DNA of 64,000 nucleotides from a plasmid (NZ_CP084508.1); one strand, 5' to 3'; shown: positions 4,641 to 9,595, numbered from the stretch's first letter. The notes: a model not told the origin generated them from the letters alone. A program made the numbers and translations.

Positions 4641-4987
4641 GCAGAATCTTAAGGTTTGGAGAGCAACCCGGCAACCAGCTTAACGTGCTTTACTTTCTGT
4701 TTTCTGAGACAACCCGAGACAGACCACGGATCTGTTGACCCCGGTCGCGCTGTGAACACAGGCTTGCGCAGCCACATCACGCCAAGCCTCTGCTGCTGCG
4801 CAGAAATAGCCCTCTCGCTCGAGAATAACAGCGCGTCGTGCACGTTGCTGATGGGGAGATAAGGGGGTATACCGAGTATACACGATGAGGACCTCCTTGC
4901 GTCTTACTGTGTTTTTTCTGAGTTAGCCGGTCCCTCTCCCCAACAGTAAAGCAAGGGAGAGGAAAAATACCTCGGCGGCATATTATA

Positions 4988-5911
4988 TTAATGTCGAACC
5001 TGCTCGAGCTCAGCGGCTGTTAAACCGGTCACCTGCATAATCGTAGCGTGATCTATACCGATAGCCAGCATGTTGCGCGCCATTTCGCGCTGAGCCTCTT
5101 GGCGGCCTTCCTGACGGCCTTCCTGACGGCCTTTGTGAATGCCTTTCTGCATGCCTTTCTGTTCAAGTTGTTCAGCGATGGTCATCAGCGTGTCTCCATG
5201 TTGCGGCACTTGCGATGCCAGGGTGGTTAGCAGGGCCTCCGGGTTTTGTGTCTCCCCGACCTGGAACATGTAGTTCATCAGGGTGCGCACCTGCTTTTCG
5301 GTAGTGTAGCCTGCCAACAGTAATGTGACCACCTGGTTTAGCAACTCAGCCAGGTCACGCTGCCGGATATGCTTCTGCAGCAGCTCCAGCAAGGCGATGC
5401 GCTTGTGCTGCATGATCTCGTCATCCGGGATGACGGTGATATCCACCAACGGGAAATCACCGCAGTATAGCTGCCTGGCCAACGCCGGGTTGGCAAACTC
5501 CTGTAACCAGGACAGGCTGTAGGGATACGGTGACGTCTGCCCTTGGTAGAACAGGATGGGTATCACCAGAGGCAATGTGTCGTGGCCGGCATCGAGGTGT
5601 TGTTGCATGGCAGCAATCGCATAACGCATCAAGCGAAATGCCATGTGCTTGTCCGGTCGGGATTGATGCTCGATCAATGTATAGATAAAACCGTCCCCAC
5701 CCTGGGTCTTCAGGGTGTACAACACATCACTGTAATACGGGCGCAAGCTCTCTTCGACAAACGAACCGGGAGCCAGTTGCAGCGTATCGAGGTCACAGAT
5801 TTCCCGCAGTGCCGGCGGCAGATGAATAGACAGAAAATCCCGGGCGGTCTCGGGGTGAGTGAGGAACGCCTTGAATACGCTGTCGTGAGGAGTCGCTGGA
5901 TGTTTTTTCAT
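4988..5911 (-). CDS. Rpn-family recombination-promoting nuclease / putative transposase (YhgA-like, PD-(D/E)XK)
   Basis: 307 aa. The N-terminal HDSVFKAFL...DFLSIHLP and YSDVLYTLKTQGG.GFIYTLIEHQSRPDKHMAFRLMRY segments match Rpn/YhgA proteins. The tail contains a Q[KE]G[MIR] tetrapeptide repeat. Confidence 0.7.
   Translation of the reverse strand: MKKHPATPHDSVFKAFLTHPETARDFLSIHLPPALREICDLDTLQLAPGSFVEESLRPYYSDVLYTLKTQGGDGFIYTLIEHQSRPDKHMAFRLMRYAIAAMQQHLDAGHDTLPLVIPILFYQGQTSPYPYSLSWLQEFANPALARQLYCGDFPLVDITVIPDDEIMQHKRIALLELLQKHIRQRDLAELLNQVVTLLLAGYTTEKQVRTLMNYMFQVGETQNPEALLTTLASQVPQHGDTLMTIAEQLEQKGMQKGIHKGRQEGRQEGRQEAQREMARNMLAIGIDHATIMQVTGLTAAELEQVRH
5092..5163. repeat. 12-bp tandem repeat (ggccttcctgac x2 plus three degenerate units) inside the Rpn gene 3' end
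   Basis: Directly visible: ggccttcctgac ggccttcctgac ggcctttgtgaa tgcctttctgca tgcctttctg. It encodes QKGM-QKGI-HKGR-QEGR-QEGR-QEAQ. Confidence 0.9.
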
Positions 5912-6059
5912 TCAGGTATATTAACATTTTACCCTGCCTGCAGATAGCGGGCGGCCATATTATCAAACCCAAAAATCACAACGACCCGGACGAGCGAGCC
6001 ATCCTTTGGAGGGGGTAGCTCAGACCGCTACGACCTCTATCCGACTTAGAGTACGATTT

Positions 6060-6141
6060 TCTCCATTTTCCAAGCGGCCCCCAATACTCGATCATTGTTC
6101 GAACGATACCCTTCTATCTCACCATGTTGTGAATCCTATTT
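6060..6141 (-). pseudogene. Short stub of the colicin rRNase-domain 3' end (third, most degraded repeat unit)
   Basis: gaacgatacccttctatctcaccatg... aligns to 6735-6773 and to the colicin 3' end at 7352-7390. Homology stops below ~6088. Confidence 0.45.
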
Positions 6142-6324
6142 CTACTGGCACTTGATACCGGCCATATCAGAAGAGGATGATGGGGCTACCGTTCCTCCTT
6201 GAATATCATGAATATAGTTTGCCTGACAGGCTGAAAGAAGAAAACCTAACGTTGCAAATAATATAAAAAAATAAATTTCTTTTTTCTCATAAATTTCCTT
6301 ATTGATATAGCTACCAGCATTCAT
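6142..6324 (-). CDS. Bacteriocin release (lysis) lipoprotein, copy 2
   Basis: 60 aa with a signal peptide and lipobox LLSAC, then QANYIHDIQGGTVAPSSSS, the conserved core of colicin E-type lysis proteins. It is a paralog of 6774..6956. Confidence 0.75.
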   Translation of the reverse strand: MNAGSYINKEIYEKKEIYFFILFATLGFLLSACQANYIHDIQGGTVAPSSSSDMAGIKCQ

Positions 6325-6371
6325 CCTTGATTACTGGTAGCTTGCTCATCAATTATTAATTGCTAATGGGA

Positions 6372-6629
6372 TCACCAATTTCCATCCCGATAATCAAAAG
6401 CTATATAATAATTATCCAAATCAGGCTTTATTTGATTTTTAAAAAATGGCTGTAGTAAAGCAACCCATTCTTTCTTCAAATCAAACTCACCATTATTAAT
6501 ATTATCCTTTAAAGGCATCCCCAGACTTTCAATGACAGCCCCATCATCACCAAAATCTTTAGAATACTCCTCACCTTTAAAATCGCTTGTCTTCTTATCA
6601 AACCATGTCAAACGTAATTTAAGACCCAT
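6372..6629 (-). CDS. rRNase-colicin immunity protein (ImmE3 family), second (orphan) copy
   Basis: 85 aa [29 protein letters not shown]...FDYRDGNW, the same length and conserved blocks as the colicin E3 immunity protein. It diverges from copy 1 in the central specificity region. Confidence 0.8.
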
Positions 6630-6773
6630 ATTTACCTCTCAAAGATATTTTTTAATATTACGTTTAGGATCGGGAGACTTTAACTGCTTACCAGTCTTAT
6701 GGTCAAAAGAGCCTAAATGCTCACCATCGCTCGAACGATACCCTTCCATCTCACCATGCTGTGAATTCTATTT
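6630..6773 (-). pseudogene. Colicin 3'-end stub (last ~40 codons of the rRNase domain) fused upstream of the orphan immunity gene
   Basis: 6630-6745 aligns base-for-base, with a few mismatches, to 7262-7390, the colicin C-terminus plus the col-imm spacer. Homology breaks at caccatg and runs into the lysis-gene stop. Confidence 0.6.
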
Positions 6774-6956
6774 CTACTGGGACTTAATACCGGTAACAAC
6801 AGAAGAGGATGATGGGGCTACTGTTCCTCCTTGAATATCATGAATATAGTTTGCCTGACAAGCTGCAAGAAGAAATCCCAACATTATAAAAGATATAAAA
6901 AAACAACTTTCTTTTTCCTCATAAATCTCCTTATTAGTATAGCTACCAGCATTCAT
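6774..6956 (-). CDS. Bacteriocin release (lysis) lipoprotein, copy 1
   Basis: 60 aa MNAGSYTNKEIYEEKESCFFISFIMLGFLLAAC-QANYIHDIQGGTVAPSSSSVVTGIKSQ: lipobox plus the conserved colicin-lysis core. Confidence 0.8.
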   Translation of the reverse strand: MNAGSYTNKEIYEEKESCFFISFIMLGFLLAACQANYIHDIQGGTVAPSSSSVVTGIKSQ

Positions 6957-7003
6957 CCTTGATTACTGGTAGTTTGTTTATCAATTATTAATTACTAATA
7001 AGA

Positions 7004-7261
7004 TCACCAAACTCCATCTCGATATACAAAAGAGATAAAATAGTCAAATTGGTTAATATCAATTACATTTTTAAAATGTGGCTGCAATATTGAAACCCAT
7101 GACTGCTCAACATTAAACCATCCATTATTTATATTATCTTCCAAAGGGAGACCTAAACTCTCAATGATAGAACCATCATCACCAAAATCCTTTGAATACT
7201 CTCCCCCTTTAAACTCTTCTGTTTTTTTATCAAACCAATGAATATGTAATTTTAGTCCCAT
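7004..7261 (-). CDS. Cognate immunity protein of the rRNase bacteriocin (ImmE3/ImmE6 family)
   Basis: 85 aa [31 protein letters not shown]...YRDGVW. It starts 10 bp after the colicin stop, the classic col-imm arrangement. Confidence 0.85.
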
Positions 7262-7270
7262 AATTTCCTC

Positions 7271-9064
7271 TCAAAGATATTTTTTAATATTGCGTTTAGG
7301 ATCAGGAGATTTTAACTGTTTCCCTGTCTTATGATCAAAGGAGCCTAAGTGTTCACCATCACTGGCACGATATCCTTCTAACTCACCATGCCGAGAGTCC
7401 CATTCATAGATTTTACGCCCTTTATCGCCATACCACCTAGCTCGCTTCCCTCCTCCGTTTTGTTTTGGTGTTTTAGGTTTGCCCTCTTGCAATTCGCCTA
7501 ATCCATGAATATCTTTTGTTTCTGGATCAGGGTAATAATCATGACCATAATCCTTAAGCCCTTTTCGAGGTTTTTTCTTCTCCTCATTAACTTTATTTTC
7601 CGCAGCTTTTTTCTTCCCTTCCTTTTCTCTGCGATTCTCTAATGCATGAGATAACGCTTGCTCCGCTAATGTCAATTTATCCTTGGCAACAATTAACCTA
7701 TTTCGGATTTTTCCGTACTCGATTAATTGCCCTTCAAGAGCTTGTCGAGATGCCTCTCGTGAATCTTTATCAGGGTTACCTTCATTAAAATCCCACCCAA
7801 ATGCTTGCGCCCCTTGTGAGATCAGTTTATCACGATCTTGTATCGTATTAATCTGTCCAACAGTACGAATTGTGCCACTATAATACGATGTTTTAAAAGG
7901 AATTGTTCCTTCTGAAACAATGGGGTATTTTGATGGATCATTCCATGACTTTACATCAGGTTCATTTCTGACCCGCTCCAGTTCACGCTGTTGGCTAGTA
8001 ACATTCTCCCTTGCCCGACGAAGCTCATCATTTGCAATAGCCAGGTCATGCTTTGCGGCCTCAAGAGGATAAGATGCATTCCACATCTGTTGACGACGTC
8101 GATCTTCCGCCTCACGCAGTTTTACTTGTTCAGGTGTTAGCACATCTGATACGGAAACATAAATCGGTTTAACATTACTATTATCGGGAAAGCGGATCAC
8201 TGCATCATGGGTGTTCCCTCCCGCACTAAACCCCACAGCTTTTTCATCACCCCGTTCAGTAGGAATGCCTTTAGGCTGGCTAACGGATACAGGCGTATTA
8301 TTCTTAATACTCAGATGGATATCCGGCTTACCAGGTACAATACTGGCTATAAAAACACCAGGACGGGAGGTTGGCTTAGCTTCAACCACAGGGACACTCA
8401 TTGGTACACCAGCTACCACTGCCAGCTTTTGCTTTTCATCCTGAATGATATCCGCCACCCGATTTTTTACCCGAACAGTAGCCGGCTGTAGAGGTAATGA
8501 GGGTGCCAGTGGTGCATCTAACACTTTATCTGCCGGAAGAGATGTCATAATTTGAGACATCATATTAGGATCATCTTTTGCGATTTCAGAGGGGATTAAC
8601 ACACCAAAAGTTACCCCCATTAATCGCCCAGCATAAGGCAGACCTGCAACTAAACCCTGCTCCAGCTTTGCCATTGCGTCCAATAAAGCTTTCTGAATTG
8701 GTGCAGTACGAAACAGAGAAAATCCCCACATACCATCAATAAGAGAAATATTCATCGGCACGCCATAAGCGACATTGGCTTGAGCCTCAGGGAATAATGA
8801 CAGATTAACGCCAGAGCTAGCGTGATCTTTATCACCACCATTTCCACCCCGACTCCATCCGGCATCGGGACGTTCCCGTCCACCATAATGAGTAATAGAG
8901 CCTCGATGATCTGTTGTCGTTGAGGTACCATCACCATTATCACGAGTATGCCCGCCTAAATTCTTCCCATCGTACCCACCAGTGGACCCTCTATCTCCAC
9001 CACCAGGGTTTCGGCCTCCACCAAAAGCATTACCGTGAGCATTATTGCCCCCATTTCCACTCAT
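7271..9064 (-). CDS. Colicin E3 / cloacin DF13-type bacteriocin with a C-terminal 16S rRNA-specific RNase domain
   Basis: The Gly-rich N-terminus (MSGNGGNNAHGNAFGGGRNPGGG...) and central IAKDDPNMMSQIMTSLPAD...VPMSVPVVEAKPTSRPGVF match colicin E3. The C-terminus KPRKGLKDYGHDYYP...KTPKQNGGGKRARWYGDKGRKIYEWDSRHGELEGYRASDGEHLGSFD...KRNIKKYL is almost identical to the colicin E3 rRNase domain. Likely start is the ATG at 9062-9064, with a GGAG RBS. Confidence 0.85.
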   Translation of the reverse strand: MSGNGGNNAHGNAFGGGRNPGGGDRGSTGGYDGKNLGGHTRDNGDGTSTTTDHRGSITHYGGRERPDAGWSRGGNGGDKDHASSGVNLSLFPEAQANVAYGVPMNISLIDGMWGFSLFRTAPIQKALLDAMAKLEQGLVAGLPYAGRLMGVTFGVLIPSEIAKDDPNMMSQIMTSLPADKVLDAPLAPSLPLQPATVRVKNRVADIIQDEKQKLAVVAGVPMSVPVVEAKPTSRPGVFIASIVPGKPDIHLSIKNNTPVSVSQPKGIPTERGDEKAVGFSAGGNTHDAVIRFPDNSNVKPIYVSVSDVLTPEQVKLREAEDRRRQQMWNASYPLEAAKHDLAIANDELRRARENVTSQQRELERVRNEPDVKSWNDPSKYPIVSEGTIPFKTSYYSGTIRTVGQINTIQDRDKLISQGAQAFGWDFNEGNPDKDSREASRQALEGQLIEYGKIRNRLIVAKDKLTLAEQALSHALENRREKEGKKKAAENKVNEEKKKPRKGLKDYGHDYYPDPETKDIHGLGELQEGKPKTPKQNGGGKRARWYGDKGRKIYEWDSRHGELEGYRASDGEHLGSFDHKTGKQLKSPDPKRNIKKYL

Positions 9065-9099
9065 AACGATTCCTCTTTGACATATAAAAACCAAAAATC

Positions 9100-9137
9100 A
9101 ATACTGTACATAAACACATGTGTTTATGTACAGTATT
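9100..9137. promoter_or_regulatory. Perfect 38-bp palindrome carrying overlapping LexA (SOS) boxes; SOS-regulated bacteriocin promoter
   Basis: aatactgtacataaacacatgtgtttatgtacagtatt contains CTGT-N8/N9-ACAG half-site arrangements. It sits ~35 bp upstream of the colicin start, as in colicin operons with a dual LexA operator. Confidence 0.55.
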
Positions 9138-9595
9138 GATGCTAGCTCTACGATAGTTAGCTGTCAATGCAATTAATTTGATTGCAATCAAAATTTCAAC
9201 CGATGTGAATGGGAGGGAGCGTTCAGTCAACCCCTTGATCCAATGGGTGAGCCGTGCGCAAGTAGCATCTTTGAATGCCGCAAAGCGGCATGGAGGCGCC
9301 AACAGATGTTGAATAGAACACTGTCAGTGACTGGCGCCGTCGCCCGGCGCAGCCGGTTACTGTCTTGATAGGTTTCACCTTACCCATCCCTTGCCCTGTA
9401 AAGCCATAATCCGCTAACAGAGAGCGTAGATGTGAATGTGCGCCGTCGGAGTGGTCACGACAAGGCGTAGCCGTAGTCGGGGCGTATCTCCGCGTTAGCG
9501 GGCCGTTAGGGCCGCTTACGGGCGTGTTATACCGAACTTTTCAGGCGCAGTATTCCTAACAGCAGCGATTAATTTTAGTTACAACATCCATTATT

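Follow-up and report, generated by a model that had tools for sequence, protein, structure and literature searches.

The colicin locus described here lies on the minus strand of a 64,000-nucleotide stretch (the window, from whose first letter all positions are counted) of NZ_CP084508.1, a 145.8-kb F-type conjugative plasmid of Edwardsiella tarda ATCC 15947 (= NBRC 105688). The locus represents a group-A-type operon for a ribosomal RNA nuclease (rRNase) colicin, followed by a toxin-less module and by the start of a third module that was cut by a transposon; this reading, together with the history and functions proposed below, has a probability of roughly three in four. The order on the minus strand is colicin, imm1, lys1, a 132-nt colicin 3' stub (stub1), imm2, lys2 and a 56-nt stub (stub2). 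The same order had been proposed in a first-pass annotation of this DNA, and all elements were recovered at or near the positions given there. The elements of the array are the following:

7271..9064, minus strand: resident colicin, 597 amino acids (PF03515 Cloacin, E 9e-68; PF06958 Pyocin_S; PF09000 Cytotoxic, E 9e-32)
7004..7261, minus strand: imm1, cognate immunity gene, 85 amino acids, W47 (PF03513, E 7e-45)
6774..6956, minus strand: lys1, lysis lipoprotein gene (PF02402), mature part and lipobox LLAAC intact
6639..6770, minus strand: stub1, last 43 colicin codons and stop (W changed to stop, D to N, then SQHGEMEGYRSS...KYL*; PF09000 positions 49-80)
6372..6629, minus strand: imm2, intact second immunity gene, 85 amino acids, E47 (PF03513, E 1e-38)
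6142..6324, minus strand: lys2 (PF02402)
6083..6138, minus strand: stub2, ~56 nt from the beginning of a third colicin stub, sharing the junction of stub1 (junction alignment; 96% in pEh-Pc1)
6017..6082, minus strand: solo terminal inverted repeat of the Tn3 family, 38 bp (GGGGGCCGCTTGGAAAATGGAGAAAATCGTACTCTAAG; repeat 6082..6045), with a ~28-nt remnant of the tnpA 3' end

A repeat search revealed a period of 632 bp, in which positions 6093-6392 are 88% identical to 6725-7024 (the lys half) and 6430-6729 are 78% identical to 7062-7361 (the imm half). A 38-nt junction motif was found three times at a spacing of exactly 632 + 632 bp, the repeat register was confirmed by pairwise alignment, and the unit is present about 2.1 times in the array. 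No second full rRNase domain was found in the 64-kb window. The locus region is identical to UFYK01000002.1 and differs by one nucleotide (near 9070) from CP082940.1, both records being ~145.76 kb long. In NCBI, the lysis proteins of both records are listed as plasmid proteins of E. tarda ATCC 15947. An assembly artefact or a recent amplification could be ruled out, since the units have diverged by 12-22% and two independent assemblies carry the same structure.

Stub1 is longer than the ~110 bp first assigned to it, and the alignment of the stubs to the 3' end of the colicin gene, which had been placed at the last ~40 codons, holds pairwise. The last 36 codons of stub1 match PF09000 positions 49-80 (E 7e-10). 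The stub lacks the first ~56 residues of the rRNase domain and corresponds to the codons W-D-S-Q-H-G-E...K-Y-L-stop, in which the W codon is now TAG.

The second immunity gene

The products of imm1 and imm2 share 65% of their amino acids (71% of nucleotides), with a saturated synonymous divergence (dS) of about 1.5. Differences are found at 10 of the 46 positions in residues 1-46 and at 20 of the 39 in residues 47-85; they thus accumulate in the C-terminal half, and not mainly in a central segment as had been supposed. At residue 47, imm1 encodes W and imm2 encodes E; ImmE3 has C there, and a third immunity type of Edwardsiella has G. Masaki and co-workers reportedly identified residue 47 as the determinant of E3/E6 specificity in 1991.

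As imm1 is 98% identical to the gene that follows the colicin in pEtSC002-2 and 96% identical to that in pEtSC002-4, it could be assigned to the cognate type; it also shows 89% identity to the Imm of one large Klebsiella plasmid set. On the common Klebsiella ColRNAI plasmids of 10,060/11,970 bp, a full-length bacteriocin is followed by an Imm that shares 93% of its residues with the product of imm2, and 378 PLSDB records carry an Imm with 90-95% identity to this product. Compared with the Klebsiella gene, imm2 has 91% nucleotide identity, a dS of 0.43 and a nonsynonymous divergence (dN) of 0.04 (dN/dS 0.09), and its dN/dS towards the copy in pEtSC002-2 is 0.07. From its distance to imm1, the E47/W47 difference and its full-length colicin partner elsewhere, imm2 is predicted to be of a different specificity type from imm1, in agreement with the first-pass annotation.

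The gene is intact and preceded by a ribosome-binding site. Its cognate toxin is absent from the window; a full-length colicin of the cognate type is present in a complete operon described below (L012), and full-length bacteriocins precede the Imm genes 93% identical to it on the Klebsiella plasmids, so that imm2 has the form of an orphan immunity gene. Imm2 probably protects its host against a sister colicin that the host does not make, and probably neutralises the common cloacin-like bacteriocin of Klebsiella too. The strongest support for such protection is the existence of the cognate toxin in the same plasmid world, in the L012 operon.

The immunity gene of the Klebsiella cloacin-like plasmids (93% to imm2), with the bacteriocin upstream, was also found on short contigs assigned to Actinomadura, Arthrobacter, Streptomyces, Limoniibacter and Pedobacter (L014-L018). 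These are almost certainly assembly contamination, because the hosts are so unrelated.

Origin of the second module

A 2-kb SRA contig (L012) carries a full-length colicin followed by an imm gene whose product is 99% identical to that of imm2 (~98% in DNA). The translocation domain of this colicin is 92.5% identical in nucleotides to that of the window colicin, and its receptor segment is different. Its rRNase domain is 95% identical in amino acids to the Klebsiella type and 84% to the resident domain, and the differences from the latter are clustered towards the N-terminus of the domain and in the tail with ...AFDPKTGKQVKG....

When the second module was compared with L012, 74 of 100 positions matched over the first 100 nt of stub1, versus 299 of 306 from the colicin stop (the end of the colicin open reading frame) through imm2 (Fisher p = 1e-11). 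This sharp switch of identity at the colicin stop indicates that the immunity cassette was exchanged and places the crossover on its upstream side within the conserved segment ...AAAAAATATCTTTGAGAGG.... A three-way alignment (74% versus about 98%) ruled out that stub1 is the tail of the colicin cognate to imm2. The proposal that an immunity gene had been captured together with a foreign rRNase fragment is therefore upheld in part: the second module is a mosaic built by recombination, but stub1 was not taken up along with imm2. With the breakpoint at the colicin stop, stub and adjacent immunity gene do not derive from the same donor operon, as they do in plasmids of the ColE9-J type.

The mosaic character also extends to the lysis genes, as lys1 and lys2 are 87% identical in nucleotides with a dS of 0.24, versus about 1.5 for the immunity genes, and lys2 differs from the Klebsiella lys by a dS of 1.3. 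Their closeness, the exact 632-bp register, the shared junctions and the resident-type tail peptide (SFDHKTGKQLKSPDPKRNIKKYL) of the stubs would all be expected if the 632-bp segment of colicin tail, imm and lys had been duplicated in tandem in situ, with imm diverging under diversifying selection and no foreign DNA involved. Such an origin is nevertheless unlikely, as imm2 agrees almost completely, behind an abrupt breakpoint, with the immunity gene of a different complete operon and stands far nearer to the Klebsiella gene (91%) than to imm1 (71%); no divergence in situ can make a gene nearly identical to one that lies elsewhere. The initial duplication, for its part, may well have taken place in situ.

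Stubs and their common junction

Stub1 and stub2 were aligned over the junction with the stubs of the loci L001, L002, L007 and L003. The sequence CAGTAGAAAnnG(G/A)ATTCACA(G/A)CATGGT..GA(T/A)..GGTATCGTTCG was found at both junctions of the window, at two loci of pEtSC002-2, in pEtSC002-4 and in pEh-Pc1, and it includes the odd codons GAG-ATG/ATA-GAA-GGG/TGG-TAT-CGT-TCG. The simplest reading of this alignment is that all stubs are paralogues from one founding illegitimate join and not independent captures. Repeated captures, as first proposed, are not borne out, since every lys-to-stub junction compared shares one sequence. The 5' edge of the founding junction, GGATTCACAG (D-S-Q), resembles the tail of the L012/Klebsiella type with its D-S-Q codons, and not the resident GACTCTCGG.

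Stub1 shares 86% of its nucleotides with the resident tail and keeps the resident-type tail peptide; of the differences, 13.5 are synonymous and 2.5 nonsynonymous (dS 1.1, dN 0.03). Both amino acid changes of stub1 fall in the junction-proximal part that is common to all stubs. Neutral decay of stub1 after a duplication in situ could be ruled out on this ratio and on the position of the changes; the counterpart stub in front of the third immunity type carries stop codons and frameshifts. The small number of nonsynonymous changes indicates that the 3' two-thirds of stub1 either belonged to a working colicin until recently or were overwritten from one.

The second position of the array is polymorphic, being occupied by imm2 in the window and by the third type (68% to imm2) in pEtSC002-2 and pEtSC002-4. 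In addition, pEtSC002-2 carries a colicin-less locus (L007, 52.4-53.6 kb) with a 65-codon stub of the Klebsiella type, imm2, a lys gene with a T7 tract, a degenerate stub, an imm3 pseudogene and a gene of the Rpn family. This remnant adjoins an HlyD/ABC-transporter pair, and the plasmid has four imm-like sequences of three types in all.

It could be argued from this locus that the second module was once a complete second colicin operon, deleted down to the last 43 colicin codons. The longer stub in front of imm2 in pEtSC002-2 fits progressive deletion, exactly such a partial second operon is present in ColE9-J, and colicin genes are decaying in sister plasmids, by an IS110 insertion and an internal deletion in pEh-Pc1 and by a deletion spanning 6023-8477 in E. 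hoshinae. Loss of a toxin is still a little less likely than duplication in situ, because the lineage of stub1 differs from the tail of the colicin cognate to imm2 and its junction is shared with stubs that precede a different immunity type. Taken together, the mismatch of lineages and the shared junction indicate that imm2 entered a slot already flanked by stubs.

Distal end of the array

The array ends at a transposon relic. Stub2 stops exactly at the outer end of the Tn3-family inverted repeat, and the element at 6017-6082 matches Aeromonas plasmids over 54 nt, which cover their inverted repeat and the 3' end of tnpA. In a direct count, 30 of the 38 repeat positions match the Aeromonas repeat adjacent to tnpA; the ~28-nt tnpA remnant lies on the inward side of the repeat. 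A degenerate pattern built from the window and Aeromonas repeats gave a single match in the 64-kb window, and thus no second copy, and none in shuffled sequences. Its exact end at this repeat marks stub2 as the beginning of a third module, truncated by a transposon of which the body was later lost. The further stub of ~45 bp that had been reported is thus present, but it runs for 56 nt to position 6083, was cut by a transposon and is no further recombination scar; truncation at the solo repeat replaces its interpretation as a separate scar of unequal crossover. A candidate terminator after the array (6003..5980) scored no better than shuffled sequence (z = -0.7).

The distal flank is formed by a gene of the Rpn/YhgA family (recombination-promoting nuclease, Transposase_31). 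Such a gene lies beside the array at each of the six Edwardsiella loci, facing one way or the other:

4988..5911, minus strand: Rpn/YhgA-family gene of the window (PF04754, E 9e-88)
L001 1917-2852; L002 561-1484; L003 2027-2962; L004 2039-2962; L007 5975-6886: Rpn genes in the other loci

The resident colicin and its promoter

Two elements upstream of the colicin gene could be recognised:

9104..9167, minus strand: SOS promoter, -35 TTGACA (9167-9162), -10 TAGCAT (9144-9139), 17-nt spacing; promoter scan 10/12
9133..9104, minus strand: two overlapping LexA-type boxes (CTGTACATAAACACATGTGTTTATGTACAG) inside a 44-nt palindrome (9140..9097)

The palindrome at 9140..9097 lies directly downstream of the promoter match (fold z = -6.9), and its part at 9133..9104 has the form CTGT-N8-ACAT/ATGT-N8-ACAG, as in the overlapping LexA boxes of a group A SOS operon. 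We take these boxes to be LexA sites from the consensus CTGT-N8-ACAG. An Rfam scan of 4800-9500 gave only spurious microRNA matches, on the LexA palindrome. Just upstream of the colicin ATG, a 1-nt indel at ~9070 separates the two assemblies, and through it the colicin is called with 597 versus 613 amino acids.

The resident protein aligns with colicin E3 from the PDB (E 9e-131) over its residues 15-366 and 460-597 only. Its translocation domain (PF03515) aligns with E3 residues 6-349, its rRNase domain (residues ~500-597) gives E 1e-47 against the E3 rRNase domain in the PDB, and the C-terminal ~112 residues are 79% identical to E3. Within this part the motif WDSRHGELEGYR aligns with WDSQHGELEGYR of E3, and the E3 residues D510, H513 and E517 are kept. 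As is usual for the cognate immunity gene in this family, imm1 (85 amino acids, PF03513) starts 10 nt after the colicin stop on the same strand. On these domains and alignments, the protein is an rRNase bacteriocin of the E3/cloacin DF13 family with predicted cleavage of 16S rRNA at the A-site, so that the original assignment of the locus to the colicin E3 type can be retained.

The receptor-binding segment (residues ~367-459, window ~7690-7965) did not align with colicin E3, and the BtuB-binding coiled-coil receptor domain of the E3 type (E3 residues ~350-415) was not found. The toxin and translocation domains of the resident colicin thus resemble those of E3, but as regards its receptor the protein is predicted to fall outside the E colicins. 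The segment varies among Edwardsiella colicins that share the translocation domain, with the window and pEtSC002-2 on one side and pEtSC002-4 and L012 on the other, which looks like modular swapping of receptor domains.

The type-F transfer region is present elsewhere in the window (traI, traD, traG, traN, traH and others) and is 93-94% identical to that of other Edwardsiella IncF-type plasmids. The description of the bacteriocin as cargo of a conjugative F-like replicon is borne out by these genes.

Lysis genes and transcription

Two hairpins and a candidate internal promoter were located within the array:

6943..6972, minus strand: T1-type attenuator hairpin between imm1 and lys1, GGA in the loop (fold z = -5.2)
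6309..6342, minus strand: T1-type hairpin repeated in the imm2-lys2 interval, GGA in the loop (fold z = -3.9)
6677..6706, minus strand: candidate constitutive promoter of imm2 in stub1, TTGACC-18-TAAAGT; promoter scan 9/12

Both hairpins are conserved and correspond in position, form and GGA motif to the T1/CsrA site of ColE7 (PMC2896534). PF02402 and the lipobox are present too, but in both copies the ATG of the basic MRKKK n-region, which an intact lysis gene of the group A type would have in frame, is out of frame. In lys1 the canonical ATG at 6922 is followed by a T7 tract (A7 at 6897-6903 on the plus strand), and in lys2 the ATG at 6290 by another (A7 at 6265-6271, plus strand); T7 is read in both plasmid assemblies and also occurs in the colicin-less lys copy of pEtSC002-2. 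The colicin-linked lys genes of pEtSC002-2 and pEtSC002-4 have T8 (ATG AGG AAA AA(T/G) AAA GTT GTT TTT TTT ATA, coding for MRK(N/K)KVVFFI). With T7, the reading frame of the ATG behind the AAGGAG ribosome-binding site is closed by a stop 12-14 codons on. Only two starts then lead into the mature frame, an ATT, which is the choice of the NCBI pipeline PGAP (MYEEKES... / MYEKKEI...), and an ATG inside the T1 loop; with either, the n-region is acidic or neutral in place of MRKKK. It had been remarked that two lysis genes in one locus are atypical; this is indeed unusual, but both of them carry T7 and have lost the frame of the canonical start.

Since both copies are frameshifted at the T7 tract, output of lysis protein is expected to be low or absent, and both genes are probably attenuated or off. 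The mature protein, CQANY(I/V)HDIQGGTVAPSSSS, is invariant in 5/5 copies, and the two T7 copies differ by 5 nonsynonymous versus 6 synonymous changes, a synonymous bias with P = 0.03 under neutrality. The T7/T8 state is discordant with relatedness, as lys1 of the window (T7) is closest to the pEtSC002-4 copy (T8) at 95.4%, which suggests recurrent slippage in the homopolymer. Purely as a hypothesis, the T7/T8 tract could be a reversible switch or a site of recoding: the sequence T TTT TTA, a -1 slippery heptamer in the right frame, could allow a ribosomal shift, and addition of a U by RNA polymerase (transcriptional slippage) would also restore the frame. By either route, the output of a lethal lysis protein would be kept low on a large conjugative plasmid.

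The terminator scan gave no terminator-like site between lys1 and imm2. The whole array would be read from the SOS promoter, perhaps also from the weak promoter in the colicin tail and stub1; the counterpart of the candidate imm2 promoter in front of imm1 lies at 7338..7309, exactly 632 bp away, and likewise scores 9/12. Imm1 would neutralise the resident colicin, and binding of Imm2 to the rRNase domain of the sister colicin would confer immunity to a toxin that is not made. That imm2 and lys2 are unexpressed and merely undegraded so far would agree with the frameshift in both lys genes and the transposon cut, but this is as improbable as loss of a toxin, given an intact imm2 with its ribosome-binding site, its dN/dS of ~0.09 towards Klebsiella and 0.07 towards pEtSC002-2, the absence of a terminator-like site between it and the SOS-driven operon, and the form that real decay takes here, namely the stops and frameshifts of neighbouring stubs and of the imm3 copy in L007.

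Proposed history of the array

The array would have started with one illegitimate join, from just after a lys stop to the W/D codon of a ...YEWDSQHGE... colicin tail. It would then have grown and been remodelled by homologous recombination between colicin operons aligned at conserved segments, namely the colicin tail with the imm ribosome-binding site and the T1 hairpin with lys. In this plasmid, a sister Edwardsiella colicin with a Klebsiella-type rRNase domain would have supplied the imm gene that took the place of the immunity cassette at the second position. The stubs would encode no active toxin and would be recombination scars that serve also as upstream homology arms.

Several points weigh against this history and the function given to imm2. 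The L012 operon is known from a 2-kb SRA contig, and transfer between operons of its type and the array may have run in either direction. That stub1 shows hardly any nonsynonymous change relative to the resident tail has to be explained by a further assumption: a functional colicin recently overwrote it, or a diverged allele replaced the resident operon. An old duplication in situ with gene conversion of lys, and not import of an immunity gene, could account for part of the pattern. The function of Imm2 is predicted from its intactness, from the purifying selection on it and from the presence of a partner toxin elsewhere. The internal promoters are weak matches (9/12) of a kind that is no commoner than chance in this region.

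A broader proposal, possible but not probable in our estimate, is that the stub-imm-lys unit acts as a cassette platform peculiar to Edwardsiella F-type plasmids, where the one founding junction and the conserved flanks would permit immunity genes of rival colicins to be swapped in again and again, and that it carries lysis genes controlled by T7/T8 slippage. If true, the unit would be a diffusible-toxin counterpart of the orphan arrays known from contact-dependent inhibition (CDI) and Rhs systems, with a clear gain of immunity rather than loss of a toxin.

Comparison with known systems

The closest known arrangement is that of ColE9-J, described as carrying 'a second, partial colicin operon' (PMC6856555); pO111_4 is similar. 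In ColE9-J, as in the window, a complete SOS operon precedes a 3' colicin fragment, an intact second immunity gene and a lysis gene, all in one orientation, so that lysis-gene sequence occurs twice. The ColE9-J record contains colE9 and immE9, then a lys gene of which only the signal peptide is left, 92 codons of colE5, immE5 and an intact lys. The window agrees with this partial second operon in having a 3' colicin fragment with intact imm and lys downstream of a complete operon. The two differ in that the join in ColE9-J lies inside the first lys, whereas in the window it lies a few nucleotides after an otherwise complete lys. In addition, the 92-codon stub of ColE9-J is from the E5 transfer RNA nuclease (tRNase) and matches its immunity gene, whereas the window stubs are rRNase tails unrelated to the adjacent imm. 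The window unit is moreover periodic (632 bp), polymorphic between plasmids and located on a 146-kb F-type Edwardsiella plasmid.

Plasmids of the ColE3-CA38 type share with the window an rRNase colicin of the same family and an extra non-cognate immunity gene in the operon. A ColE3-type plasmid of E. coli (NZ_CP031901) has the order col, ImmE3 (identical to the ImmE3 sequence in the PDB), a DNase-type imm and lys, without a stub; unlike imm2, the extra gene belongs to the DNase Im family, stands between imm and a single lys and has no colicin stub upstream. The cloacin DF13 and Klebsiella cloacin-like ColRNAI plasmids also have the order col-imm-lys, and the Imm proteins of two sets are near imm1 (89%) and imm2 (93%). 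These are, however, single modules on small mobilisable plasmids, and the Edwardsiella colicin has a receptor segment of its own and an overall identity of ~51% to their bacteriocins.

In polymorphic toxin systems, polyimmunity loci are well recognised (PMC3482391). The orphan cdiA-CT/cdiI modules of CDI systems and the Rhs arrays likewise place tandem 3' toxin fragments with intact immunity genes downstream of a full pair, and such orphan arrays are regarded as products of recombination that broaden protection (PMC3482391; PMC12546727). In contrast, the toxin of the window is a diffusible colicin and not contact-dependent, its modules carry lysis genes, and its stubs, which lack the N-terminal, Imm-binding portion of the rRNase domain, are for this reason too short to rebuild a new toxin specificity. 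Orphan immunity genes for colicins occur widely among E. coli plasmids, where pore-forming, microcin, peptidoglycan-inhibiting, tRNase and DNase categories are distinguished and an rRNase category is not (PMC12546727).

A scan of GTDB species representatives, among whose results Edwardsiella itself does not figure, gave 54 PF03513 loci. Morganella psychrotolerans has the order toxin, imm, 30-codon stub, imm; stub-imm modules occur in Yersinia, Tenebrionibacter, Rouxiella and Photorhabdus cinerea, and several Pseudomonas loci have toxin-imm-imm. In a metagenome-assembled genome of the Enterobacteriaceae (L011/L019, CANRKT010000016.1, 1-5000), four immunity genes of the rRNase type (PF03513) and five of the DNase type (PF01320) lie within 5 kb, interspersed with toxin stubs of 34-56 codons and lysis-gene remnants; this is a mixed polyimmunity array in a chromosomal island next to glutamate synthase genes.

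Since ColE9-J, the ColE3-type plasmids, the polyimmunity loci and these stub-imm layouts precede it, the Edwardsiella array is a further, well-preserved example of a known phenomenon, and its layout is not new in kind. What distinguishes it is a periodic unit with lys as one of its parts, a founding junction common to all stubs, a stub that does not match its cassette, and lysis genes that are frameshifted. No description of this locus was found in the literature consulted beyond the word 'cloacin' in one genomic-island table. PGAP annotates the parts one by one, and the array, the stubs, the transposon cut and the lysis-gene frameshifts are left unremarked.

Implications

The current understanding of colicin biology is unchanged by this locus. 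It provides a clean natural example of a colicin plasmid that widens its range of immunity without the cost of a second toxin. Here gain of immunity can be distinguished from loss of a toxin, by the position of the breakpoint at the stop codon and by the founding junction that the stubs share, a question left open by a recent survey of E. coli plasmids (PMC12546727). The prediction is that E. tarda carrying the plasmid should resist two types of rRNase bacteriocin, which would be relevant if such bacteriocins came into consideration against Edwardsiella or Klebsiella.

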